A stretch of 64,000 nt of DNA from Escherichia coli (GTDB taxonomy: Bacteria; Pseudomonadota; Gammaproteobacteria; Enterobacterales; Enterobacteriaceae), in NCBI RefSeq assembly GCF_024223415.1, contig NZ_CP100500.1; one strand, written 5' to 3'. Shown here one piece after another: positions 1-13,902 of the stretch (the stretch's first letter is position 1; the number at the start of each line of letters is the position of its first letter). The translations under genes were made by a program, and so were the position numbers. The notes below the pieces were generated by a model. That model worked only from the letters and a program-made list of their open reading frames with translations. It had not been told where the DNA came from and searched no databases.

Positions 1-600
1 GGCGAGTCGGTCAGTCTCTTGTCCGGTGATAAGATGAAATCCCCACCGGTCCCATCTCACCAGATTGTTGATAATGATTTTACTTCCAAATTTACAGGGA
101 GAGTTGGTTTTATAATTCCAGCTCAGTTCCCTGAAGACGTTAATCACTCCCCGCTTAAACACCTCATCCTTGTTCTGGTGCAGTTGTTCAAATGTGCTCA
201 GAATGTTCGCTTCGCTGATTTCCGGAAAATTATCGTACTCCAGTGACCGGTACCATGTATCACGGGCCTGTGCATCCATTAATGACAGCATCCCGGAACG
301 TTGCATCAGGTCACGCCAGATTTCACGGTCAAGGTTGCGGGTAATGGCTTTCATTATGGTTTCCGGTTTCTCAGTCAGCCAGCAACCACAGCGAAAATCC
401 TGTTTCATGGCCCAGTCCGGGGCGGTTTTATCTCCAATACTTTCTGTCATTGCTGAGATTTCTGTCAGTTGCCGGATAAGTGTGTCGATTTGCATCAGTG
501 TGGTCTTTCGTACAGCCAGAATGTGTCCGATTGAGGTGGAACAGATAACGTCCGTATGCCCGTTGACCACTTCAGGACGGGAGATTGTGATACCTGACAT
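1..600 (-). CDS. Conserved island-terminus protein (DUF4942-like), partial; 3' end lies beyond window start
   Basis: Minus-strand ATG at 600-598 (MSGITISRPEVVNGHTDVICSTS...), open to position 1; lies downstream of yeeW as in CP4-type islands; truncated paralogous start at 49261-49420. Confidence 0.6.
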   Translation of the reverse strand, partial: MSGITISRPEVVNGHTDVICSTSIGHILAVRKTTLMQIDTLIRQLTEISAMTESIGDKTAPDWAMKQDFRCGCWLTEKPETIMKAITRNLDREIWRDLMQRSGMLSLMDAQARDTWYRSLEYDNFPEISEANILSTFEQLHQNKDEVFKRGVINVFRELSWNYKTNSPCKFGSKIIINNLVRWDRWGFHLITGQETDRLA

Positions 601-684
601 AATCGTTTTTCCTTTTTGCCGATAAATGAAAACGTCAGCCCTGTTCAGGCTGGCGTCAGTGGAGTGAAGTATAGTGAGTGAGAC

Positions 685-1038
685 TCACGCGCTCAGGTGA
701 ATGAGTTGCAGGTGACGCAGGGTACGGACATCTTCCCTGGCCTGTTCGATACAGGGCAACAATGCTGCCGAATCCGTTTTATCCTCATTGTTGTCAAAGA
801 TAATCCCCGATTCGCAGTCGGATATTGTCCTGCAGCCACGCAATGTTGTAAACGGTGGTGGAGTGCAGGTTGACTGCTGGTCAGGGTCGTCCACCACGCG
901 GAGTGAATAACCGTATTCAGCGACCTTGTTAATCAGTTCAGTGAGCTCAACACCATCAATGTCAACGACAATTCGCCCTATATTCAGTGCCTGTACGTTA
1001 ACGCTGTCTGCTTCCAATGTCAGGGCCAGTTTCATCAT
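685..1038 (-). CDS. yeeW: YeeW-like protein (DUF5983)
   Basis: 117-aa ORF overlapping the cbtA stop by 4 bp; conserved position after the CbtA toxin gene. Confidence 0.7.
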   Translation of the reverse strand: MMKLALTLEADSVNVQALNIGRIVVDIDGVELTELINKVAEYGYSLRVVDDPDQQSTCTPPPFTTLRGCRTISDCESGIIFDNNEDKTDSAALLPCIEQAREDVRTLRHLQLIHLSA

Positions 1039-1409
1039 TTCGCCTCCGGATACTTACCCAGGGTAATGTTATTTACCGTTCTGTAATTGTCGCGGGTCAT
1101 CAGGCCGGTCGCCCTGCGAGCCCGGAGGATATCGATGCTGTTTATTAACTGAGAGCGGGTACAGGTGCTGAATCCCGGCTGGTCGGTACGCACCAGCGCG
1201 TATTTTTCCACGAGAAAGTTCACCGCATCACACAGTGAAATGCCAGCCTCAATATGCTGCTCAATCACACGTTCATCGGCAAACGGTGTGTCATGCAGTG
1301 TGAGGCCGTAATGCTGGTCCAGCAGCCGGGTCAGCAGTATCTGCCAGATTTCAAGCGGAGACGGGCGTGAACTGGCCGCTTGCTTGGGTAATACAGGTAA
1401 TGTTTTCAT
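1035..1409 (-). CDS. cbtA: CbtA (YeeV) family toxin, cytoskeleton-binding type IV TA toxin
   Basis: 124 aa, MKTLPVLP...ILLTRLLDQHYGLTLHDTPF... near-identical to remembered E. coli YeeV/CbtA. Confidence 0.9.
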   Translation of the reverse strand: MKTLPVLPKQAASSRPSPLEIWQILLTRLLDQHYGLTLHDTPFADERVIEQHIEAGISLCDAVNFLVEKYALVRTDQPGFSTCTRSQLINSIDILRARRATGLMTRDNYRTVNNITLGKYPEAK

Positions 1410-1454
1410 TTTAAGTTCTCAGTAATGGGGGAGATAAAGGTGAGATATTCGGGA

Positions 1455-1817
1455 TTATGCTGTTGTTGCGGGAACTGCTGGTGTCGGATAAACAGCCATA
1501 TAAACGTAGCCACAACTGCCGAGGGTGTCGGCTTCGCAGGTCAGCCCTTTTGCATACAGCGTGACGGTATGCTGATGACGGGGACTGAGTTCACCGCTGG
1601 TGAGCATTAATTCCAGTTGTTTCATCAGCAGCGGAAAGGCCTGGTCCGGATGGTATGCATCTGCGTCGCTGAAGCGGCCTCTGATACCGGCGCGGTCGGC
1701 AAGGTAATGCAACCGGTTACCCTCCTGCACCAGACAGGCCCCGAAACAGGGCGTCACGGTGCAGGGTAGTCCCCACCAGGGGCGGTCGTGATTGTCGTCG
1801 GGGAGTGTGTCTGACAC
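1455..1817 (-). CDS. cbeA: CbeA (YeeU) family antitoxin
   Basis: 120 aa, MSDTLP..DNHDRPWWGLPCTVTPCFGA...; immediately upstream of cbtA. Confidence 0.9.
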   Translation of the reverse strand: MSDTLPDDNHDRPWWGLPCTVTPCFGACLVQEGNRLHYLADRAGIRGRFSDADAYHPDQAFPLLMKQLELMLTSGELSPRHQHTVTLYAKGLTCEADTLGSCGYVYMAVYPTPAVPATTA

Positions 1818-1892
1818 GATAAAGTCCTCACAGAAAATCGGTTAAGAATGGTCCGGTAGTGGCGATAATTCTGCTCATCAGAATGCCCTGAC

Positions 1893-2114
1893 TCAGTTCA
1901 GGGTGACACTCATCAGGCGGACATACGGGCCAAAACTGTCCTTACGGCGTTCTGCAAATACAGCCAGCACACCGGGAATATCCTGCACTTCACGACCGGT
2001 ATACGCCTCAGCACTGCCGTGCCAGCGGTATTTACCGGTACAGAACGGAAAAAGACGGGATGTCGGATGTTGTTGGTGAATACGCATGGCTTCACCACGG
2101 GTGATAATTTTCAT
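1893..2114 (-). CDS. yeeT: YeeT-like protein (DUF987)
   Basis: 73-aa ORF in the conserved position between the radC-like gene and cbeA. Confidence 0.75.
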   Translation of the reverse strand: MKIITRGEAMRIHQQHPTSRLFPFCTGKYRWHGSAEAYTGREVQDIPGVLAVFAERRKDSFGPYVRLMSVTLN

Positions 2115-2176
2115 AATGGGATACCTCTGAAGACAGAAGATAAAAGTGAAAACAGGTGTGATGTGGTTGTGACGGG

Positions 2177-2668
2177 TTAAAGCAGACCATGTTCGGCAAA
2201 GGAGAAAACCTGGCTGCCACCGACTATCAGATGGTCCGGCACCCGGATATCCACCAGGCCCAGTGCCTGTACCAGACGTTCCGTGATAAGGCGGTCTGCC
2301 TTGCTGGGTGTGACTTCACCGGACGGGTGATTGTGCGCCAGCACCACGGCAGCGGCATTGTGGTACAGGGCGCGTTTAATCACTTCCCGGGGATGGACTT
2401 CCGTGCGGTTGATGGTGCCGGTGAAGAGGGTTTCACCGGCAATCAGCTGATTCTGGTTATTCAGATACAGCACCCGGAATTCTTCACGCTCCAGTCCCGC
2501 CATGTTCAGAATCAGCCATTCCCGTGCCGCACGGGTGGAGGTGAAGGCCACGCCGGGTTCATGAAGATGGCGGTCCAGGGCTTTCAGGGCCCGCTGAATG
2601 AGGCTGCGCTCGCCGGGCGTCATCGCTCCGGGCAGAAAGGAAAGCTGCTGCATTGTCCCTGCCTCCAT
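2177..2668 (-). CDS. yeeS: RadC-like JAB-domain protein (YeeS/YfjY family)
   Basis: 163 aa with JAMM-like motif HNHPSGEVTPSKADRLIT. Confidence 0.85.
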   Translation of the reverse strand: MEAGTMQQLSFLPGAMTPGERSLIQRALKALDRHLHEPGVAFTSTRAAREWLILNMAGLEREEFRVLYLNNQNQLIAGETLFTGTINRTEVHPREVIKRALYHNAAAVVLAHNHPSGEVTPSKADRLITERLVQALGLVDIRVPDHLIVGGSQVFSFAEHGLL

Positions 2669-3154
2669 TCAGTCGATAATGCGCATAATGGCGCTGCATT
2701 CCGGATGCTGCAGGGCGTAATCCCGCAGCCGGTAATAATGGACCGTCATGGCATAACACTCCGTACGACAGGCATGATGACTGTACGTCATCAGACAGGC
2801 AGCAATGCCGGCGGCTTCCGGGCTCATTTCAGCGCGGTTACCGTTCATGGCATTGAACAGTACCCATGTTTCGTCATCATCGTCATCCGGTTCGGGTGCC
2901 ATAAATGCCCCGCCATTGTTCAGGGTGTACAGATTCCAGATACCACCGCAGTAGTCTTCGCACAGACGGTCCATCCAGCCGAAGACACGGGGCTCCAGGG
3001 CCACCCACTGTGGAATGAGGCCAAAGTGCTGCGGCCAGAAGCTGATGCGCTGTTCATCAGGGACTATGGTGGCAACCAGTTGAGACTGGTTATTCCCTGA
3101 TGCAACGGTTACGGAAACAGAAGGTGTGGTGGAATTATGCGAAGAGGTTGTCAT
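2669..3154 (-). CDS. Antirestriction protein (ArdB/KlcA-like, YfjX family)
   Basis: Acidic DDDDDE stretch and conserved island position; start chosen at MTTSSHN after an AGGA ribosome-binding site. Confidence 0.8.
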   Translation of the reverse strand: MTTSSHNSTTPSVSVTVASGNNQSQLVATIVPDEQRISFWPQHFGLIPQWVALEPRVFGWMDRLCEDYCGGIWNLYTLNNGGAFMAPEPDDDDDETWVLFNAMNGNRAEMSPEAAGIAACLMTYSHHACRTECYAMTVHYYRLRDYALQHPECSAIMRIID

Positions 3155-3245
3155 GAGATTATTCCTTATAAAAAGCAAATGAATGGAAGAATGCCTGGGG
3201 ACTGGTACAGACGTGAGTCAGGGCTGCACTTTCAGGGAAACAGCA

Positions 3246-4064
3246 TCAGCGCAGGCTCTCCAGCAGCGTTTCTGCCATCACCCACAATGCGCGGTTGAGC
3301 CTAATGTCCGTGTCGATGCTGTGAATGGCACGGGTGTGGATACGTTTTCCTTTAGCGCTGCGACCGGAAATCCCGCCTTTCAGCATATTCTCCTGGATGG
3401 TCTGATATGCACTCCACAGGTCCTTACCGTAATCCTCCCTGCGTCGTGGCGTCAGAATGTCGGCGGTGGTGACCGGCTGATGTTCGTCACCATAACGGTA
3501 AGTCAGTGCCGCCTGTGCCAGCGCCTGACGTGCCGGTGGCGGCAGGACCAGAGACTGCATGGCATCACGCTTTTCCTCAATCCGGTCAAAAACGCCCACT
3601 ACCTCGTAAGCCCCTTCAATGACTCTGTCCACCACATTTCCCCGGTGGGGCACACGGACTTCCCCCAGAGACTGACCGCAGACGCAGCCGTTCTGGCAGA
3701 CGAATCTGAAGTAACCCGGCAGCATCTGGTAGCTGGAGGTACCGTCATGGGAGTTGAGCAGAATAATTTCAGGGACATGTTGTCCGGTTATCTCCCCGGC
3801 CCGCCGCAGACGCAGCATGTGTCTGGTGTATCCCCGGCGGCCCGGGTCGCGCACGCGGGTCTGGCAGGCGAAGAATGGCTGAAAACCTTCCCGCTGCAGG
3901 CTTTCCAGTACGGTGATGGTGGGAATGTACGCATAGCGTTCACTGCGGGAGGTATGCCGATCTTCCCCAAAAATACTGGGTACATAGTGCATCAGTTCTT
4001 CATGTGTCAGCGGACGGTCACGGCGTATCTGGTTTACATGACCAAAACGACTTGCTAATCGCAT
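3246..4064 (-). CDS. DUF932 family protein (YfjQ/YafZ-like)
   Basis: 272-aa ORF in the conserved position downstream of the island GTPase. Confidence 0.8.
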   Translation of the reverse strand: MRLASRFGHVNQIRRDRPLTHEELMHYVPSIFGEDRHTSRSERYAYIPTITVLESLQREGFQPFFACQTRVRDPGRRGYTRHMLRLRRAGEITGQHVPEIILLNSHDGTSSYQMLPGYFRFVCQNGCVCGQSLGEVRVPHRGNVVDRVIEGAYEVVGVFDRIEEKRDAMQSLVLPPPARQALAQAALTYRYGDEHQPVTTADILTPRRREDYGKDLWSAYQTIQENMLKGGISGRSAKGKRIHTRAIHSIDTDIRLNRALWVMAETLLESLR

Positions 4065-4154
4065 GATTTGCTCCTTATGAATGAGTTAGCGGTATAAATG
4101 AAAAAGCCGCGTCTCCCGGAGAAGACGCGGCCTGACCGATGAAATGAATGACGT

Positions 4155-4388
4155 TTATTGTCTGAGAAGCCCTTCACTGGCGAGCCACGCATTAAGTTGT
4201 TTGCCGGCATCGTATTCAAAATTCCAGCACCGCCAGCGCAACTGACATTCAGCATTGTGGATAACCAGCCGGAAATGCGTTCCCTGGTCATTTTCGATAA
4301 ACACATTGCGATAAGCTGTTGTGATGGCAACCGCCTGCTCTCGAGAGAAAGGGCCTTCGGGCAATAAAACAGGGTGACAGTCCGACAT
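4155..4388 (-). CDS. UPF0401/DUF905 family small protein (YkfF-like)
   Basis: 77 aa, [13 protein letters not shown]...[10 protein letters not shown]...[15 protein letters not shown] resembles the YkfF family of CP4 islands; family from memory. Confidence 0.55.
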
Positions 4389-4393
4389 ACCGG

Positions 4394-5071
4394 CTATTTT
4401 CCGATAAATTCAACGCTGGCACCGGTGGCATTACCGTCAGCACCAACCGTGACGGTCACTTTGTCGTACGCACGGTCTTCAGGATTGAACACTTCAAACT
4501 CAACCTTATTGCCTTTTACTTCGTAAGAGCCAAAATCAGCGGTTTCTGTTGTTTCCTCGTCATATTCCCGGGCGTATGCCTGCCGGGCAGCCTGCAGGAC
4601 GGAATCTTTATTAATGGCGGGTGTCTGTTTCGGGGAAAAATCGGCAAGTGATGTGACAAATTTCGGACAGACCTTCAGCATATCACCGCGGGTGAATTCC
4701 ATTCGTACACCAAATGCCTGTAAAACGGACACATCACGCTCTGCTATGGAGTGAACGGCTTTTTTGACCATTTCCGGCGCCTGTCCGACTTCCACCTCAA
4801 CAGCCCTGAATCCTGTCTGCTGATTACACATTTGTGATGTGGGGATCAGGTTACCGTTAATATTGATACGGCTGCCCAGGAGCGTCTGTACACCATTCGG
4901 GCATCCCTGCATCAGGCCGGTAATACCAATCGTGCCATTTTTCAGCATTACCAGCGCCTGACCATCTTCCGTCATGGTCTGACACCAGCCGTTTTTGACA
5001 GCCCAGTTGCCGGCGGAGGCGGAGAATGATGCCACAGTGAACAGCAGGGGAAAAAGAATTCTGGTATTCAT
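4394..5071 (-). CDS. Secreted hypothetical protein
   Basis: 225 aa with N-terminal signal peptide ([20 protein letters not shown]); same strand and spacing as neighbouring island genes. Confidence 0.6.
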
Positions 5072-5189
5072 GACTGACCTCTGAAATTAAAGAGCGTGTT
5101 ATTGATAATGACAGACGGTATACGGCAGTGGTTACCGTAATCCGTTGTCGTGTAAAGGTATACGGTTGCCACGGGGGACTCCGGGGCGC

Positions 5190-6074
5190 TCAGAACAGGT
5201 GATCCCACAGTGTGACCAGCAGGTGGATAATGCGGTCCCGGGTTTTGCGCAGAAGCTGTAACATCCAGGCCGGAAAACTGAAACGGGCAACGGCGTCGTC
5301 AAAACTTTTCCCGATGGTTTCACCAAAAGTCTGTTGTGCGTGTTTCCGGGCCTGTTCAGAGCGGTTTTCCCCCCGGATATGTGAATAAACCGCACTGGTT
5401 GCCTGTGGTGGCAGTGCGTGGATCATCAGCGACACAAACGCCGGAAGGTTCCAGCCGACAGGTGCGGCAACGGAGAGTACCGGAAATGATGAAGGGAACA
5501 GGGTTGCCACCCGGGCTGTCACCGTCGCCAGTGAGAGCGCCTGCTGACGGGACGGGCATTTTTCTGTGTCGTTCCATTCTTCAGCAGGAAACACGCGATC
5601 GGCATGGCTGAGAACAAACAGAAAACGCGAGGGATCTGCACCTTCATTCAGTAAAAACTGATGCATGGCAATATCAGCAGCATACGCACGTTCATCAGCC
5701 CGCAGGATCCAGATAATCAGATCCAGTTCGGGCAGTAACTGACTGTAAAGTGCCCGGTATTCCTGATCATGCTGTGGTGTTTCGCCAGTGCCGGGCAGAT
5801 CGACCAGCGTCATTCTTCGTTCACCGGGCTGAAAGGTAAGACGATGAGCCTGACGGGTGCAGCCGTTCAGCGGATGCGTGGCGCAGACACGGGACTGAAA
5901 AATGGCATTGCACAGGCTGCTTTTTCCGGCACCGGATTTACCCATAATGCCAATAACGGGTTCGTACTGAATGACGCTGCGAAGATGTTCAAGGATTTTC
6001 TGGCGAATTTCTTCAGGAAGAAAGGTCAGATGTGACTTTACGTGTGCGGAGAGGGAAGAATGGCTGAATGACAT
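5190..6074 (-). CDS. Island GTPase (YeeP/YkfA/YfjP family)
   Basis: P-loop GIMGKSGAGKSS and DLPGTGE motifs; 294 aa. Confidence 0.85.
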   Translation of the reverse strand: MSFSHSSLSAHVKSHLTFLPEEIRQKILEHLRSVIQYEPVIGIMGKSGAGKSSLCNAIFQSRVCATHPLNGCTRQAHRLTFQPGERRMTLVDLPGTGETPQHDQEYRALYSQLLPELDLIIWILRADERAYAADIAMHQFLLNEGADPSRFLFVLSHADRVFPAEEWNDTEKCPSRQQALSLATVTARVATLFPSSFPVLSVAAPVGWNLPAFVSLMIHALPPQATSAVYSHIRGENRSEQARKHAQQTFGETIGKSFDDAVARFSFPAWMLQLLRKTRDRIIHLLVTLWDHLF

Positions 6075-6174
6075 ACCGTTATCCTGTTGATTTCACTGAA
6101 CCGGATCACATTAATCCGGCCTATCAGTCAGGTAATATGGACGTGAAAATTTTTCCATTGACGGGAAGAAGAGT

Positions 6175-7323
6175 ATGGCTAAAAACAAAGGTATCTGTCG
6201 GAATAAAAAATGCAGCAATCCTGTTTCAGAATTTGATGAGGCAAATGCCCTGAGGTTATGTGATGATCATTATCAGTTATGGAAACGAAATAAAGAGAAC
6301 CGTCGGGTCAGGAATATTTGTCGTATAATCAGTAAATATGACAAAAGTCTGGACCGGGAGATATTTGACAGAGTAATAGATGCTGCAAGAAATCAAACGG
6401 GAAAGAGAATTGTTGAGGACGCAAAAATATTACATCAATTGCGCAATTCAAAGCAAGTAAGAAAAAGTCTTCATAATGGAGTACTCCGGTCACGGGAATG
6501 GCTCAATACACAGGAGTTACTGAGAAGAAAAAATATATCTGTTACAGGTGACTCATTTAAATCTTACATAAAGGATATTGTCAGATTATATTGCTATAAG
6601 TTTCTCTACAGCAGAGAATATCTTAATGAAAACGCATACAAAAAACAATATCAGAGAGTTATTAACCCCAGAGAATTTAATGTTCCGATACTTCAACTTG
6701 AAGTTGCATGGATCAATAATAATTGCCGTTCAAGTGATTCAAGCTCTGATATTATCATCCTTCCCAGGATGATAAGAAGAATGGTTGTATTTAATGATAC
6801 GAAGATAAATAAACAATTAGAGGAAATGTTGGGGGGGATAGCACGAAAAAAAGTCGCAGTAAGGAATAAAGGCGGTCTCTATACCAGAATAAAAAAAGAA
6901 AATGATTTTCGTTCTATGGATAGATTTATGGTGGAAATCGAAAATATCATAAGACCTGAAATATTTCCGACATCAATTTACCCGCCTTTTTCACTTTCAT
7001 TTATCGAGAGAGAATTGCCACTACTGAATCTGGCGCACTCACAGTACAAAAGAGCAATAAGTAAAAAAGTGGCGAATTCAATTTTTTATACTTTGCGAAA
7101 AACTCACGTGGCATTATGGCTGCATCTTGAAATGTTTGCTCTTGTGGCATTCATCAAACTGTATACAGGAAAAGGGTTTGAATTCATGAAAAACATGTGT
7201 GTATTTATAGATTATGATAAAGGGATAATAAAATCCACGCATGAAGAACTGCTGAGTGAAATTAAGTGTAACATTCAGTTGAATTTAAAGGTGAATCCTG
7301 ATAATTTTCCTGAATTAATATAA
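6175..7323 (+). CDS. Orphan hypothetical protein, 382 aa, AT-rich
   Basis: Long uninterrupted ORF in markedly AT-rich DNA; N-terminal Cys/His cluster (C8, C13, C29, H32), Lys/Arg-rich body, hydrophobic segment near the C-terminus; no family recognised by eye. Confidence 0.6.
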   Translation: MAKNKGICRNKKCSNPVSEFDEANALRLCDDHYQLWKRNKENRRVRNICRIISKYDKSLDREIFDRVIDAARNQTGKRIVEDAKILHQLRNSKQVRKSLHNGVLRSREWLNTQELLRRKNISVTGDSFKSYIKDIVRLYCYKFLYSREYLNENAYKKQYQRVINPREFNVPILQLEVAWINNNCRSSDSSSDIIILPRMIRRMVVFNDTKINKQLEEMLGGIARKKVAVRNKGGLYTRIKKENDFRSMDRFMVEIENIIRPEIFPTSIYPPFSLSFIERELPLLNLAHSQYKRAISKKVANSIFYTLRKTHVALWLHLEMFALVAFIKLYTGKGFEFMKNMCVFIDYDKGIIKSTHEELLSEIKCNIQLNLKVNPDNFPELI

Positions 7324-7984
7324 ATATACAATTCATGCTTTAGTAAAAATATATTGTTGTATGATGTTCAGGATGATGGTTTTAAATGGTGTTTATGATG
7401 TGAAAATATTAAATTTATATTACATTTTAATTATCGACAAAAAACACATAAAGAAATCTAAAGGGAATGAGCGTCAAATGAGCTGATATAGCGCCAGTTT
7501 GGTATGGTCATGTGATTTGATGATTAAAGCTTACGGATAATAACACTCCTCTGTGAGCCATATAAATGAGCATGCCATAATCGTCAGTTCAGAGATAAAA
7601 CTGACTGAATGATCTTATGTTATAGTAAGCAGTGTTTACCGGATACGATGACTTATCTCTCTCACATCATATGGATTCACTTTCATGGGGTAAAGCGATG
7701 GGACTACAGACGCTGATTATGATGGTTTGCTGTAAAGTTAGCACAAGTTTTTGCTGTACAGAATACGGAGTAAGAAAAATAATTCCAGAGTAAATCTGCT
7801 CTGCTTTTGAACAGAAAAGATTCATGCTTACCGTGAAAAACTGAAACCAACATTCAGTCTGCATGGATGTCTTAAGATGTTGAGAATGTCGGATATGGTA
7901 TTATATACACCTTTTCCATTAGGTCCTTTTATGTTTTCATTAAGTCGTTTTGTATGTATTCCTCCAGTGATTCATTAGTGCCTG

Positions 7985-8640
7985 TTTACGCATTTACACA
8001 CTTTTCCCATTAATCTCCTTTAAATGTGTTTCATTACGCATTGCTGTACACATTTTTGAACTGATACACATCCAAGTTAGTAAACCTGTCAGTTCTGATT
8101 TTACGTTAACTAAATCAGTTTAATGCTGCTGTAAAACAATCCTTCCTGTTTAAGCAATCAATCTGCTATTCGATTTTACTGATGTGACGTTTAACCTTTC
8201 CTGAGCTTTGGTTGTTTGTGGTTTTTGGTTTGTGTTTCGACGTTAAGCTGAGAAAAGTATCTTTACGCTAAATCAACCCGAACTTTCCTGAGGTGATCTG
8301 ACGTTCTTTTCGATGTGCTTACGACGATTCTGTTAAACGACTTTCTGGATGTTTTGATAACAATCAGATTGAGGCATTAACGATTCCTGACGTTTTGCTT
8401 TTTCATGTAAGGTCATTGTTTTCGTCATGATGTGGTTTTTCTTCTTGCATTGCGAAAGTGTGATGATTGGTTTTGGTTTTTTGATTCAGATGAGATTTAC
8501 GTTATCGATGGTTAATCGTTTTTATGGTGAGTAGTGAAACGTAACATTTTCGGGATGAGAAAATCGATTCTGATGGTGATGGGGATGATCGTGTTACGGC
8601 GTTATCTGTAAACAGGTTTTAAACGTGTCATTCGCATTCG
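7985..8640. repeat. Array of about 11 short ACGTT/ACGCT-core motifs plus CTTTCCTGAG-type repeats in AT-rich non-coding DNA
   Basis: Motifs such as TTACGTT, GACGTT(T/A/C), TTACGCT recur every 30-60 bp; no ORF of 60 aa or more spans the region. Confidence 0.45.
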
Positions 8641-8981
8641 TGATTGAGTTGTGTGATTAAGCTGTAGGTTTTGGCGTTGTTGTTGATTTGCATTGCCAGG
8701 AAGCGTTCTGGTTGCGTTTCTGGTGTTTTGTTCGAATGTTCTGTGGATCCTTTTCCCTTCAGGCTTTTCTCGTCGTCCATGTCGTTTTTAAATCCATTCA
8801 TGCTGTTGTTGCGTGTTTTGCTGCTGTGTGCAGGATTATCTTTTCGTTCCGGGATGGTTTGTTCCGTTTCAATCACTCTTAATCAGAGAGTTGTAGCATT
8901 GCTTAATGACATGATGCCGTAAAGTTTTACCGCGGTGATTAATGATGTGAAGTCAATCCAAATCAACGGAGATCTCTCATC

Positions 8982-9713
8982 ATGAATCAACCAATACACA
9001 ATGCTTACTGGTTATCCCGTTTTGACAGCCTTCTCGACAGTGCCCTGTCGCAGCACCGTGCCGTCTCGTTAATCCGGGTGGATTTACGTTTCCCTGAGTA
9101 TATGCCTGTCACCATCATGGATCCCGATCCGGATTCAGCGGTGATTTCTCGTTTTTTCGAATCCCTGAAAGCCAAAATCCAGGCTTACCAGCGGAAAAAA
9201 CGACGTGCCAACAAGCGTGTGCGTGCAACCACTCTGCGTTATTTCTGGTGTCGGGAGTTTGGCAAGGAAAAAGGCAGGAAACATTATCACGTGATATTGC
9301 TGCTCAACAAAGATACCTGGTGCTCGCCAGGGGATTTCAGCGAACCATCTTCGCTGGCGACGATGATCCTGGAGGCATGGTGCAGCGCCCTGCATCTTGA
9401 GGCCTGGCAAGGCGATGGCCTGGTCCATTTTTCCAGGTGGACGCCTTCCCGTAAACCAGCATCGTCTGATGCTCGCCCTTCTTCCGATGACACGCCTTTG
9501 TCGGGTGGATGTTCTGATACCAGGAAGGCTTCAGAAAAAAAGCCGGGTGAAGCCGCTGTTCTCTGGATCAAGCGTGGTGATGTGGAAGCGCTGCAGAAAG
9601 CCCGGAACAGAGCCAGTTATCTCGTGAAATATGAGACGAAGCAGCATGACGGTTCCGGGCAACGTAATTATGGTTGCAGTCGTGGGCCGGGGCGTCTGCT
9701 GGATGGCAGGTGA
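8982..9713 (+). CDS. Inovirus Gp2-family protein (YagK/YfjJ-like), copy 1
   Basis: 243 aa; HYHVILLLN motif typical of Gp2-family island proteins; preceded by a conserved leader motif. Confidence 0.8.
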   Translation: MNQPIHNAYWLSRFDSLLDSALSQHRAVSLIRVDLRFPEYMPVTIMDPDPDSAVISRFFESLKAKIQAYQRKKRRANKRVRATTLRYFWCREFGKEKGRKHYHVILLLNKDTWCSPGDFSEPSSLATMILEAWCSALHLEAWQGDGLVHFSRWTPSRKPASSDARPSSDDTPLSGGCSDTRKASEKKPGEAAVLWIKRGDVEALQKARNRASYLVKYETKQHDGSGQRNYGCSRGPGRLLDGR

Positions 9714-10039
9714 GCCCTGTAAAACGACATCCGGTGCCTGAGCTTATGCTACAGGACGTTGGCTGACGCCCTTAGCTCGTTTTCTGAAAAAGTCGTCCTG
9801 AAGTCATGCAACGGTATTTTTCTCTGCTTTCGCTCCTGGAAACACTCCGTCGGTAAAACCTTACTGTCCTGCTTAATGATGTGAACCGAAGTCAACGGAG
9901 ATCATTCATTCTGAACCTGCATCCGGTGTTCTGTCCCTTGTCGGTTACCTGATCTTCCCGTTCTGCCGCGGTTTTTCACTTATTCCATCAACCCCATACG
10001 CAAGCCATAACACGTCAGCGCATCCACGGGCAGGACGCG

Positions 10040-10642
10040 TTGTGGGCTGCGTATAACGGAACATATCTTATGAATGCTATCCCTTATTTCGACTATAGCA
10101 TGGCGCCCTTCTGGCCATCTTATCAGAACAAAATCATCGGCGTTCTCAACCGTGTGTTGCGCGAGCAGTCCTGCTCCCGAATACGGCGGATCCTGCTTCG
10201 TCTGCCGGGGGAACATGGCAACATCTTCAGCGACAGAAAAACCTGGTTCGGTATGGCCTTTATCGAAACCGTCAGTGCGCTGATGAATGCAACACCCGGA
10301 CGTGACCTCTGCTGGCTCCTGACTCGTCATCCTGAAAAACCGGAATACCACGTGGTGCTGTGCGTCAGACAGGAGTATTTCGACGGCCCTGAACTGGATC
10401 GGCTGATTCTGGATGCCTGGAGCAACGTACTGGGCTTCGCGTCACCGGGTGAAGCGGCACCGTACCAGAAACAGATAACCCGGGATGTGGTGCTGGACAG
10501 TTGTTCACCGGACTGCGAAGAGAGACTCAAAGAGCTGATATGGGCGTTCAGTGATTTCGCCCGCGATCATCGTGGTGTGCGCGATCCGGAAGCCCGTTAC
10601 CTCGCCGGTAATCCCTGGTATCCCGTAGCAGGCCAGCTCTGA
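10040..10642 (+). CDS. Inovirus Gp2-family protein (YagK/YfjJ-like), copy 2
   Basis: Paralogue of 8982-9713 (EYHVVLCVRQ motif); true start may be the internal Met near 10070. Confidence 0.75.
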   Translation: MWAAYNGTYLMNAIPYFDYSMAPFWPSYQNKIIGVLNRVLREQSCSRIRRILLRLPGEHGNIFSDRKTWFGMAFIETVSALMNATPGRDLCWLLTRHPEKPEYHVVLCVRQEYFDGPELDRLILDAWSNVLGFASPGEAAPYQKQITRDVVLDSCSPDCEERLKELIWAFSDFARDHRGVRDPEARYLAGNPWYPVAGQL

Positions 10643-10710
10643 AAGCTCAGCTCAGCAGATTCACCCGCATTTGCCCAACATTCATAAATCTCACAGAGGA
10701 CATTCTGACC

Positions 10711-10947
10711 ATGTTGACCTCAATGACAGGTCACGACAGCGTATTGCTGCGTGCCGACGATCCCCTGATCGACATGAACTACATCACCAGCTTCACTGGT
10801 ATGACCGACAAATGGTTTTACAAGCTGATCAGTGAAGGCCATTTCCCTAAACCCATCAAACTGGGGCGCAGCAGCCGCTGGTACAAAAGTGAAGTGGAGC
10901 AGTGGATGCAGCAACGAATCGAGGCATCACGAGGGGCAGCAGCATGA
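10711..10947 (+). CDS. alpA: AlpA-family phage/island regulatory protein
   Basis: 78 aa with HTH and conserved WYKSEVEQWMQQR C-terminus. Confidence 0.75.
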   Translation: MLTSMTGHDSVLLRADDPLIDMNYITSFTGMTDKWFYKLISEGHFPKPIKLGRSSRWYKSEVEQWMQQRIEASRGAAA

Positions 10948-11057
10948 AACGTGTTGTAATGCCGGTACGCTGGCAATGTGCAAAATACCAGCGTTGGTAT
11001 TGTGGAAGCCGGCCCTGTCCCTGGTGCTGGCGACACTCCCGCTCATCTTTCTGCTGA
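10944..11057 (+). CDS. Small Cys/Trp-rich peptide (37 aa), possible zinc-ribbon protein
   Basis: ATG overlaps the alpA stop (ATGA coupling); MKRVVMPVRWQCAKYQRWYCGSRPCPWCWRH has a C-x7-C-x4-C-x2-C pattern; below the ORF-track cutoff, read by eye. Confidence 0.35.
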   Translation: MKRVVMPVRWQCAKYQRWYCGSRPCPWCWRHSRSSFC

Positions 11058-11149
11058 CACCCTCTGGTCAGCCAGCGGACTATCGTCCTTTCCTGACCGA
11101 TTCGTCATTCCATTCTTATTGATTATAACTGGCATTACACCGGTGCCGG

Positions 11150-11760
11150 CGTGCTTTTCTGTAGATCTGCACCGGTTTAACAAAATTCGACAAGGTTTGA
11201 AGGAGTATTCTGTGCAAATAAGCGAGGCCCTAATTTCAGAACCGGGGAAAATCCAGCGTTTTGTTCAGCAGGCGGTGGACCACTAGCCGCGTCTGCTGGC
11301 AGTCCACTTCACGCTTGATTCGGCTGAAGGGAATATTGACGAGGGGCAGATTCATGCATTCTGTACTGCCTTTTACCGACAGGTGCACGAGCGTATTACT
11401 GAACGTAATCACACGGCCAGCCCATCCTCGCCGGTGGTATTACGCTGGTTGCGGGAACAACATGGAGGAGCAACAATACGATGCCTGTTGCTGTTCAGCC
11501 AGGAGCTTTTCTGCCATCCGCGAGCCAGTGTGACAGTTGATGAAGAATGTTCACAACTGGTGGATTTACTACAACAGACTTGGCAGGTGATAAGCGCTGG
11601 CGGACAATGCCGGGTGGAAAAGCGTTTTCAGGTCGTCCGGGGTGATACATCTGGCCAGTATGTTGCGTTAAAAACAGTCGCATTGTCTCTGGGGTTACCG
11701 GTTGTGATCGCCATTACCCATCGTCCGGTACAGCGCTGTACATTGATTACAGCTCAGTGA
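11150..11760 (+). pseudogene. Gp2-family gene, copy 3, frameshifted
   Basis: Gp2-like segments (LLAVHFTLD..., ...HGGATIRCLLLFSQE) spread over three overlapping frames. Confidence 0.5.
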
Positions 11761-12882
11761 ATCAGCGCAGTTGTGCAGTCAACGAGGTTTTCTGGCTTTT
11801 CGTCGGTCATTCAGCATCATTAAACGGGTCTCTGCCTCTTTCTGTTCCTGTGGTGTCACTTCCCCGCACGGCTGACCGTTCAGGTTGTAACGGGCGCCAC
11901 CTGCTATTAACGCACGGTAATAGCGCGGAGACTGCACATAAGACGCCACTGCTGCATGTAATGTACCAGCGCCAAACGCCAGTTCTCGGATGGCGATATC
12001 CTGTATCAGGTCGTCAGGTATCCCCACTTTAAGTGGTTTTGTTTTTTTCCCGGTTGAATGACTCAGGCCAGAGTTCCACAAGACGAATAATGCGCTTACG
12101 GTTTTTGCTCTGGCGTTTTGTCATGTCGCCACGGTGTTTTATCAGCAGGTTTCTGTTTATCGTTCAACTGTGGTATCTGGTCACCGGCCTTCATTTTGTA
12201 TGCTGTGTCCGTTTTATTCTGCAGCGGCGTTGCCGGTGATTTACTGAAAATACCCTGCGGTTTACGGTTAATGGTCAGAGTTACCATCAATTTTGTTACC
12301 TCGCGCTGTCAATGGAAGTAGTACCTCATCCGATATCTGAAAATGTTTTCCGGTGGATGTTACAGCGAATTTCATGTAAGACATGTTGTTGTCGGTATTG
12401 TTCAGTACTGTGCGTTGTGAGCGTATTCGTTATCAGACAGAGGGGCAGGGAACAAACGTCAGAGGTTAAGGATATCCGGGAACAAATGGCGTAAACGGAC
12501 ATCTCAGTGCCTGAGAAACAGTACAGGTCAGGCCATCATGGCCTGCAAACAGAGCCCTGGCGACCCCGTGGCCGAAAACGAAACAATAACCCGCGCGCAG
12601 TGCGAGGAATCCGGATGTGAAGCAATCAGCAGGTAATATTAATGGCAGGACCAGCAGGTTCTTTAAACAAACGAACATGCTGTAATTGATATTTTGCTTA
12701 TTGTATTTTCTTTTTAGTTATTAAATTAATTTATTTACGAAAAATTTTCTGCAGATACAGGATGGGAATTCAGGGTGTCATCACGCCTTATGATGACACC
12801 CTTCCCCTGGTTGTGGAAAACCGAAGGATATATCAGGTTCAGCAACAAAATCAGTGAGCTGAAAGATACCAGTCCCCCAGCT

Positions 12883-13902
12883 TCAGCAGCTTTCACGTAA
12901 ACATAAACAGGGCTCAATGAATATCTGATTGCTCCAGTTACCTTCTTTAATTCGTTCCAGCAAAACATTTCCTGCTTCCAGACCAATTTTCCTGTGAGGA
13001 ACGGCCATTGTTGTTAATGATGGTTGGCAAACTTTGCTGACGTCACTGTCACCAAATCCTACTACGGCGAGCTCGTCTGGAACTTTGATCCGTCTTCGTT
13101 GACATTCATAGAGAACACCGCAGGCTAACTCATCTGACACACATACCAGGGCATCCAGTTCCGGCCATGCGAGCAAAAATTCCGGTAGTTGTGATGCTCC
13201 GGTGGAAAAAACAGGTGGCAGAGCAGCGTTAATAACACGGTTGGGAGACATATGATGGCGTAACATAGCTTTATACCATCCCTGTAAATGCTGCTGAAAG
13301 ATCCACTGTTCCTGGTTAGCGCATAGCAAACCGATATTCTGATAACCACGTTGTACCAGCATATCCGTCAGCTCGAACATTGCTGCAACATTATCAATAC
13401 CAATGTTGATATCTATCGGATCAGTACGAATGGCACCGATTTCTATAACAGGAATCGAGGCATTTTTGAGCAAGTGACGCACGGTACTATTATGCTCAAC
13501 ACTAAGCAAAATTGCTGCAGCGATATTAGAAGCCAGCAGGGTTTCCAGCAGTTTTTCTTCTTGTTCCAGACGATGGCGTGACTCAGCCAGGATTATTTGA
13601 TACCCCGCTGGTTGTAGCACATGTTGCAGCCCGGCAAACATTTCCGTGCATCCCGCTTCAGCCAGGTTTGGCACGACCATTGCGATCGTGTGTGAAGATG
13701 CCGATGCCAGTGCGCTTGCAGTGAGGTTGGGCATATACCCTAATTCATTAACTGCGGCTTCAATCTTCTCCCGCAATTTATCTGAAACTTGTTCGGGAGT
13801 GCGTAACGCTCTGGATACAGTCATTGTGCCAACTCCCGCGAGTTGCGCGACATCAGCAATAGTGACTTTACCTGTACTACGACGTTTTCGGGTTATTGCC
13901 AT
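12883..13902 (-). CDS. LacI-family transcriptional regulator
   Basis: 339 aa; N-terminal HTH VTIADVAQLAGVGTMTVSRAL and periplasmic-binding-like body; divergent from the PTS/transketolase operon. Confidence 0.85.
   Translation of the reverse strand: MAITRKRRSTGKVTIADVAQLAGVGTMTVSRALRTPEQVSDKLREKIEAAVNELGYMPNLTASALASASSHTIAMVVPNLAEAGCTEMFAGLQHVLQPAGYQIILAESRHRLEQEEKLLETLLASNIAAAILLSVEHNSTVRHLLKNASIPVIEIGAIRTDPIDINIGIDNVAAMFELTDMLVQRGYQNIGLLCANQEQWIFQQHLQGWYKAMLRHHMSPNRVINAALPPVFSTGASQLPEFLLAWPELDALVCVSDELACGVLYECQRRRIKVPDELAVVGFGDSDVSKVCQPSLTTMAVPHRKIGLEAGNVLLERIKEGNWSNQIFIEPCLCLRESC

Follow-up and report, generated by a model that had tools for sequence, protein, structure and literature searches.

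Among described systems, the closest to the region considered here are the CP4-type islands of Escherichia coli K-12. The region lies in a 64-kb stretch of the E. coli contig NZ_CP100500.1 (assembly GCF_024223415.1), the whole of which we call the window, and comprises a gene for a YagK/YfjJ ('inovirus Gp2') protein (open reading frame 1, ORF1), two remote relatives of it (ORF2 and ORF3) and an AlpA gene. YagK of CP4-6 and YfjJ of CP4-57 are, like ORF1, island-borne and encoded near an AlpA gene. CP4-57 has the order intA-yfjH-alpA-yfjI-yfjJ, with a single Gp2 gene and no gene of ORF2 or ORF3 type annotated in the stretch shown, whereas the window has three paralogues, with AlpA between the second and the third, and no integrase nearby. 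The accessory genes of CP4-57 (GTPase, DUF932, antirestriction, RadC and CbeA/CbtA) are of the same kinds as those of the present island. AlpA of CP4-57 and CP4So (PF05930) is likewise a small winged-helix protein of islands of the tRNA/transfer-messenger RNA (tmRNA) type, and in CP4So it is needed for excision (PMC5148205). The window's AlpA, however, is too diverged to be detected by tblastn with K-12 AlpA, and its gene is not beside an integrase.

There are two further points of comparison. In Pseudomonas, the core genes of the tmRNA islands I23, I44 and I55 include RadC as well as an inovirus Gp2-like gene beside AlpA, these last two being placed at the other end of the element from the integrase (bioRxiv 10.1101/2024.08.29.610337). 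By their descriptions, these gene kinds are the same as in the present island; host genus, integration site and cargo differ, and that paper describes neither several Gp2 paralogues nor a loss of motifs nor a common operator. The other comparison is with the HUH endonucleases (Rep proteins or relaxases, and inovirus gpII), with which ORF1 shares the ordered motifs RVDLR, HYH and YxxK. In contrast to these enzymes, no adjacent origin in the form of a hairpin with a nick site was identified here, and ORF2 and ORF3 are without the His pair and the Tyr.

Most E. coli genomes contain CP4-type islands, which carry virulence, metabolic and defence cargo, and their conserved Gp2/AlpA core is functionally uncharacterised. 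The Gp2/AlpA module, the island family and most of the annotations are already known. With moderate confidence, we read the region as the conserved Gp2/AlpA core of a CP4-57-like E. coli island, consisting of one motif-complete Gp2 protein, two motif-less paralogues, AlpA and an operator palindrome, with the roles that are proposed below. Four points are new here: ORF2 is assigned to the YagK/YfjJ family as a divergent member, UCP030791 is linked to Gp2 at the level of profiles, a motif-complete member is accompanied in a recurrent pattern by motif-less paralogues, and the palindrome is conserved. These points are incremental, and the instance of the module in the window is an otherwise ordinary, partly degraded copy. 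Its main features are as follows.

8919-8986, plus strand: leader 1, with the palindrome GTAAAGTTTTAC (8919-8930), a box TTAATGATGTGAA (8939-8951), TCAACGGAGATC with the Shine-Dalgarno sequence GGAG (8963-8974) and the ORF1 ATG (8982)
8982-9713, plus strand: ORF1, a YagK/YfjJ ('inovirus Gp2') protein of 243 amino acids, identified by Pfam YagK_YfjJ_C and motifs
9853-9915, plus strand: leader 2, a diverged copy of leader 1, with the palindrome GTAAAACCTTAC (9853-9864), both boxes, and CTG where leader 1 has ATG
10070-10642, plus strand: ORF2, by profile-level homology a divergent YagK/YfjJ paralogue of 190 amino acids, named 'hypothetical protein' by RefSeq
10711-10947, plus strand: AlpA-family winged-helix regulator or excisionase-type protein of 78 amino acids, identified by Pfam Phage_AlpA, PHROG and RefSeq
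11212-11760, plus strand: ORF3, of the UCP030791/PF27752 family, 182 codons, a pseudogene here, identified by translation and hhalign

One motif-complete Gp2 protein and two divergent relatives

ORF1 is a canonical member of PF11726 (YagK_YfjJ_C), scoring 128.3 bits against a gathering cut-off of 25.8 (E = 3.6e-37). It also matches the Pfam family REP_ORF2-G2P (PF23343; 1.9e-10) and PHROG 'replication initiation protein' families (8e-8 to 3e-4), and is 31% identical to K-12 YfjJ over its full length. In a joint alignment, the ORF1 family has an RVDLR beta-strand motif, then HUH, then Y213-L-x-K; a beta-strand motif, HUH and YxxK in this order are the mark of HUH rolling-circle endonucleases. 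The HUH motif of ORF1, H101-Y-H103, is nearly invariant in 17 orthologues, and Y213, L214 and K216 of its Tyr motif, Y213-L-V-K (YxxK), are invariant; of the three proteins, only ORF1 has either motif. By these features ORF1 is nuclease-like, keeping the HUH and YxxK motifs of rolling-circle endonucleases of the Rep/relaxase type. Between an AWCSAL motif and the Tyr motif there is a Ser/Pro/Asp-rich insertion of about 45 residues (window 9435-9570, residues ~152-196), which is found in Escherichia orthologues and is absent from the orthologues of other genera and from K-12 YfjJ.

The relationship of ORF2 to this family becomes visible through distant homologues. ORF2 itself has no direct match in Pfam (E <= 0.1), NCBIfam or PHROG and does not score as a member of PF11726, and a word-indexed search returned only E. 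coli sequences, at an identity of at least 71%. An exhaustive HMMER (phmmer) search of 1.84 billion representatives added two full-length homologues, P0317 (35%, E = 2e-14) and P0322 (31%, E = 9e-8). The first of these forms a bridge, matching Pfam YagK_YfjJ_C with 41.8 bits (1.4e-10), and a profile of ORF2, P0317 and P0322 aligns by hhalign with the ORF1-family profile at 97.7% (E = 1.7e-12, 127 columns). In ORF2, EYH replaces HYH; across its subfamily the motif is E/C/F-Y-H, with C/F-Y-H in the distant relatives. No Tyr is conserved in the C-terminal third of the subfamily, the sole candidate, position 177, varying among Y, C, H and A. ORF2-like genes were seen only in E. coli and in two metagenome loci, L010 and L012, and genes of this type could be annotated as divergent YagK/YfjJ members.

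A similar situation holds for ORF3, whose intact alleles have no match in the local Pfam at E <= 1 or in NCBIfam or PHROG, and do not score as members of PF11726. Its homologues carry the precomputed assignment PF27752 (UCP030791), and some NCBI records name ORF3-type proteins 'inovirus Gp2 family protein'. By hhalign against the ORF1 family, E. coli ORF3 sequences alone give a probability of 23%, and ORF3 together with the distant ORF3-like genes found next to P0317 and P0322 gives 97.0% (E = 8.4e-11, 144 columns); an hmmsearch with the ORF1-family model cross-hits ORF3-like reading frames of other genera at 1e-4 to 1e-9. At the HUH position the ORF3 subfamily has MRC, IRC, CGM or LHG, with no His pair and no conserved Tyr. 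Because ORF2 and ORF3 are both without the His pair and a conserved Tyr, they are probably non-catalytic. A sequence-only reading of this DNA had described three Gp2-family paralogues in tandem with AlpA among them. The three reading frames are indeed on the same strand, but ORF2 and ORF3 are only remote homologues, at the level of profiles. The AlpA placement is correct: the gene lies between the second and third members and its product is a member of PF05930 (40.8 bits, cut-off 21; E = 2e-10), with a further match to the PHROG family 'excisionase and transcriptional regulator' (6e-10).

The same reading took the third gene to be decayed by a frameshift. It is inactivated, but there is no frameshift: ORF3 is a single frame from GTG 11212 to 11760, broken only by an in-frame TAG at 11284-11286 (TGG to TAG, codon 25), which replaces a Trp present in all 22 aligned homologues. 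Among 5,426 complete E. coli genomes, a single one, that of strain CM2, has the exact 49-mer around the TAG, and there the island context is different. Either the knockout arose recently and is rare or, with lower probability in view of the independent CM2 record, it is a sequencing error. We also note that the motif AGTAT(T/C)CTGT stands at the ORF3 start (window 11203-11214) and recurs just after the stop of the ORF2-like gene in L010 (~5440) and L012 (~6600), a recurrence that may be chance.

The gene set is found well outside E. coli. An ORF3-profile scan of one genome per species gave 16 loci, in Siccibacter, Tenebrionibacter, Yokenella, Mixta, Hafnia, Yersinia, Superficieibacter, Serratia, an Escherichia sp. 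and metagenome-assembled genomes. The order Gp2 - AlpA - ORF3-like occurs in 11 of these 16 loci, all retrieved through the ORF3-like gene, and in at least nine other genera of the Enterobacterales; a divergent GTPase gene on the opposite strand accompanies 7 of the 16. The two metagenome loci that encode P0317 and P0322 (L010 and L012) have AlpA, Gp2, ORF2-like and ORF3-like genes on one strand, and the divergent GTPase gene is present in L012 and, at the contig edge, in L010. Identity among the three genes of the window is about 16-20%, and pairwise BLASTP gives weak collinear matches around one motif only. Within E. coli, the ratio of nonsynonymous to synonymous substitution rates (dN/dS) is 0.35-0.42 for ORF1, 0.06-0.28 for ORF2, 0.08-0.14 for AlpA and 0.31-0.42 for intact ORF3 alleles, and ORF1, ORF2 and the intact ORF3 alleles are under purifying selection. 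Because orthologues occur across genera in the same order and dN/dS is low, the trio is an old and maintained set rather than a recent duplication in decay.

There is in addition a fourth YagK/YfjJ subfamily of 188-191 amino acids, with the motifs H-A-H and YLAKE, which is absent from the window; its gene comes before ORF2 in L010 and in part of the E. coli islands. Examples are at 9477-10043 in locus L003 of strain UC4316 and at 2520-3095 in L010. The motif-complete member is ORF1 in the window, the 188-191-amino-acid type in L003 and L010, and a 208-amino-acid HYH type in L012. Every module examined in detail therefore combines one member that is motif-complete with one or more that are motif-less.

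A shared leader that begins with a conserved palindrome

Positions 8919-8951 match 9853-9885, and positions 8948-8986 match 9877-9915, at 76-77% identity with a 5-nt indel. The 12-mer TCAACGGAGATC has only two occurrences in the 64 kb, a number reached in 0 of 100 shuffles, and TTAATGAYRTGAA has seven matches against 0.42 expected. The repeat that the sequence-only reading had placed before the first two genes is therefore real, but leader 2 lies 155 nt upstream of the ORF2 ATG (10070), with an in-frame stop (9950-9952) in between, and the leader string given in that reading, GCTTAATGA..., runs together two separate copies of the leader 1 box, at 8900 and 8936. Both leaders are kept in five related E. 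coli loci (L001-L004 and L006), whose flanks further upstream differ. Because leader 2 of L003 sits between the extra 188-amino-acid YagK gene and ORF2, with the 155-nt spacer kept, it belongs to the upstream region of ORF2. For leader 2, the window and L003 differ at 8 of 63 positions (our own count), with nearly all of the changes between the palindrome and the box called A; the synonymous divergence (dS) of ORF2 for the same pair is 0.27. A leader at 76% identity beside proteins at about 20% excludes one old duplication followed by neutral drift, and so the leader was either selected or copied later.

Two other accounts of the leader were considered and rejected. Leader 2 is not a stump of a deleted Gp2 gene, given its position in L003 downstream of the 188-amino-acid YagK gene with a conserved spacer. 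Nor is the leader the coding sequence of a gene that had escaped recognition, a possibility raised when the repeat was noticed: no open reading frame spans both copies, and the frame of ORF2 has the stop at 9950-9952. In L003 this stop is lost through a 12-nt deletion, and the frame is open from the CTG onwards; chance can readily give a run of 53 codons without a stop, and in distant homologues of ORF2 the start is the downstream Met.

The 5' end of the leader is a 12-bp palindrome, GTAA-N4-TTAC, whose only two exact copies in the window are those at 8919 and 9853. Each of eight non-E. coli loci (about 10-14.5 kb) contains exactly one exact copy, always in a Gp2/AlpA intergenic region, where about 0.2 per locus would be expected at the window's rate. 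In five of the eight loci the copy starts 57-128 nt upstream of a Gp2 ATG, and in the other three it is between Gp2 and AlpA. In four loci from other genera the palindrome is 57-63 nt upstream of the Gp2 start; its distance to the ATG is 62-63 nt in L022, L026 and L028 and 63 nt in the window. In L003 it is also found upstream of the 188-amino-acid paralogue. This recurrence suggests that the palindrome is probably an operator. The boxes of the leader are absent from the distant loci, a search of viral contigs with the leader motif gave one match only, and Rfam gave no match at E <= 1 over 6000-13000. At the RNA level, both the Shine-Dalgarno sequence and the AUG are contained in a hairpin formed by leader 1 (z = -3.8 in the window and -4.9 in L003).

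Just before leader 2, at about 9808-9832, there is a recombination junction. Many islands share ORF1 and about 100 nt downstream of it, up to ~9808-9830, beyond which their cargo is unrelated (an acyltransferase gene, for instance); the islands of UC4316 and strain 163 diverge there. The block leader 2 - ORF2 - AlpA - ORF3 begins at about 9832. By this comparison, the Gp2/AlpA module of the window is recombinant. A 43-nt piece next to the junction, 9766-9808, is 100% identical to a Shiga toxin-producing E. coli plasmid (NZ_CP075666.1).

Proposed roles and competing explanations

We propose that the palindrome would act as an operator through which a dimeric DNA-binding island protein co-regulates the Gp2-family genes, with AlpA as the obvious candidate. 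ORF1 would nick or otherwise process island DNA after excision controlled by AlpA, and ORF2 and ORF3 would be its non-catalytic partners or regulators. In E. coli, the leader-1 RNA may also hide the ribosome-binding site. The motif-less Gp2 paralogues of the ORF2 and UCP030791 types, the single motif-complete copy per module and the palindrome shared across genera together make a testable system.

Several observations weigh against this proposal. A literature search for the activity of YagK/YfjJ proteins returned annotations only, with no experimental report for the family. Homologues of ORF1 in phages amount to 1 unverified record (a 4.5-kb 'phage' contig) of 50,697, and those in plasmids to 64 of 72,556 records, all of them large replicons and never as the sole Rep of a small plasmid. 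Because homologues are nearly absent from phages and confined to large plasmids, a replication role is unsupported, and on the same counts we rejected the idea that Gp2 serves plasmids or phages as a replication protein. That ORF2 has lost the Tyr motif is read from a MAFFT alignment, the hhalign match spanning residues 16-146 only, and the AlphaFold 2 model of ORF2 is unusable (predicted local distance difference test score, pLDDT, 39). The ORF3 model fits generic palm or ferredoxin-like folds as well as it fits viral Rep. With regard to the leaders, AlpA is only a candidate for the palindrome-binding protein; scans for sigma-70 promoters and terminators found no site, and no sigma-70 consensus promoter, at either leader, with totals not above those of shuffles. 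The hairpin of leader 1 is unmatched in leader 2 and in Yersinia, Serratia and Yokenella, where folds are no better than shuffles, and because of this any translational control would be specific to leader 1 of E. coli.

How far the proteins are to be regarded as enzymes can be argued in two directions. The island YagK/YfjJ proteins might not be nucleases at all, but rather DNA-binding or regulatory proteins, for example transcription or anti-defence factors, in all three cases, with the HUH-like motif of ORF1 as a relic. Such a reading would accommodate a family with no known activity in the literature, rare in phages and plasmids, in which two of three paralogues are without the motifs and yet remain under purifying selection, and for which a sequence search of the PDB with the ORF1 profile detected no solved structure. 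We consider it unlikely nonetheless, since H101, H103, Y213 and K216 are invariant or nearly so in ORF1 orthologues of distant genera, ORF1 matches REP_ORF2-G2P and the PHROG replication-initiator families, and one motif-complete member is kept in each module examined in detail. Going further than our proposal, the trio might form a heteromeric HUH machine in which a catalytic Gp2 protein works with two dead specificity paralogues, and the palindromes and T-rich repeats (including an array in UC4316, described below) would be the origin or transfer site. This we regard as improbable; if it were true, rolling-circle processing after excision triggered by AlpA could enable the 'cryptic prophage-like' islands of CP4 type to replicate or to be mobilised.

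The leaders and the gene trio could also be explained without an operator or a maintained set. The likeness of the leaders could be a by-product of recombination or gene conversion between neighbouring modules, with the ribosome-binding site of ORF1 as the only function of their own. The junction just before leader 2, where in L003 and L004 ORF1 is followed by unrelated cargo, would be expected under this explanation, as would a leader 2 with CTG in place of ATG, 155 nt away from ORF2, whose RNA folds no better than shuffles, and the lack of a promoter consensus. However, the leader cores are more conserved than synonymous sites, and the palindrome recurs upstream of Gp2/AlpA in otherwise dissimilar loci at the same 62-63 nt from the ATG, and also before the additional paralogue of L003; a mere by-product is thus possible but rather doubtful. 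Less credible still is the history given in the sequence-only reading, namely a local duplication of one Gp2 gene together with its leader, followed by divergence of the copies and, now, by decay of the module within a degenerating integrative element. The duplicated leader, the stop codon in ORF3, the frameshifted ProQ gene, the many insertion sequence (IS) elements and the fact that no integrase was found in the window gave this idea its appeal. It is largely refuted by synteny across genera, where each subfamily has its own orthologues in a conserved order. It also fails to account for coding identities of only 16-20%, for dN/dS values well below 1 (0.06-0.42), for a nonsense allele that is private (1 of 5,426 genomes), and for a leader far more alike than the proteins, which is incompatible with one old duplication and neutral drift; we judge it very improbable.

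The island around the module

On E. coli chromosomes there are 7,325 places that match the 4.6-kb stretch 8000-12600 (96-98% identity); they are spread over 2,939 of 5,426 complete genomes, with a median of two per genome, and the stretch so represents a multi-copy island family. In relatives, the RefSeq order is 'inovirus Gp2 family protein', 'hypothetical protein', 'AlpA family / helix-turn-helix transcriptional regulator', ORF3 and ProQ/FinO, the ORF3 position being named 'hypothetical' or 'UCP030791 family putative phage-derived protein'. The left part of the window holds, on the minus strand, a CP4-type block of CbtA/YeeU, RadC, antirestriction, DUF932 and GTPase genes, and the corresponding accessory genes (GTPase, DUF932, antirestriction, RadC and CbeA/CbtA) are annotated in the relatives that match window 1-6074. 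In the right part, the cargo is split up by IS66, IS3 and IS110. The features surrounding the module are the following.

5190-6074, minus strand: YeeP/YfjP-type GTPase gene, from the RefSeq annotation of relatives; it is transcribed away from the Gp2 module and marks the other conserved island block
6175-7323, plus strand: protein of 382 amino acids, Cys-rich at the N-terminus (CRNKKCSNP...LRLCDDHYQLWKRNKE) and encoded between the Gp2 module and the GTPase gene
8040-8660, plus strand: T-rich stretch poor in reading frames (T 39.5%), with repeated (T)TACGTT, TGACGTT and TTTACGTT motifs
10944-11057, plus strand: tentative reading frame of 37 codons (MKRVVMPVRWQCAKYQRWYCGSRPCPWC...), Cys-rich and unannotated, whose ATG overlaps the AlpA stop (ATGA)
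11779-12290, minus strand: ProQ/FinO-family gene (Pfam ProQ, 3.2e-17), split by a frameshift into reading frames of 100 and 64 amino acids

The island is an IS-ridden and visibly degraded mosaic, with its copies of IS66, IS3 and IS110, the frameshifted ProQ/FinO gene and the nonsense codon of ORF3. To this extent the earlier description of a remodelled or degenerating element is sound, but the distance from an integrase, on which it also leaned, is not evidence of remodelling, because the Pseudomonas tmRNA islands place their Gp2-like and AlpA genes opposite the integrase. All of the annotated relatives seen (GF60, ApSLC23, strain 135 and H8) have the ProQ/FinO gene marked as 'frameshifted', and for this reason the shift is either a programmed one or an old lesion that has become fixed. 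As in the sequence-only reading, no integrase came to light in the window: tblastn with CP4-57 IntA gave a best E of 3, other integrase types not having been searched in the window's reading frames. In annotated relatives that cover most of the window, the matching span has IS transposases alone listed, and integrase fragments are confined to the sequence beyond it. There is no tRNA or tmRNA gene in the 64 kb, and the ends of the island are outside the window. In strain 135, which is 100% identical to the window only over 8850-10110, the related island abuts cadC, which in K-12 lies in the neighbourhood of pheU.

Of the proteins encoded next to the module, that of 382 amino acids has no Pfam, NCBIfam or PHROG match. 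In the distant locus L010, a homologue (phmmer, 2e-63) is found at the equivalent place next to AlpA, and the protein looks like another conserved part of the module. The 37-codon frame behind AlpA has no Pfam match of its own. At the same position, other genera have one or two genes with DUF7828 and Zn_ribbon_11, read in the Siccibacter locus L014 between AlpA and the ORF3-like gene, and to judge from this position the short frame may be a remnant of such zinc-ribbon genes.

Finally, we note that the gene for the 382-amino-acid protein and ORF1 are separated by 1.66 kb (7324-8981) that is T-rich and poor in reading frames, and in which RefSeq annotates only a doubtful 'hypothetical protein' of 82 amino acids on the minus strand (8628-8876). 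Within 8040-8660, ACGTT occurs 6 times against 0.5 expected. The homologous stretch of UC4316 (L003) has, about 900 nt upstream of ORF1, a tandem array of 3.7 copies of a 17-nt unit (GTTTAGTAAATCTTTAC, 4199-4261) that holds GTAA-N4-TTAC, and at 4686-4738 a microsatellite, (TGATGG) x 8.8. The window has a single degenerate unit of each, at 8078-8110 and 8571-8590, respectively, and both arrays therefore vary in length between strains.

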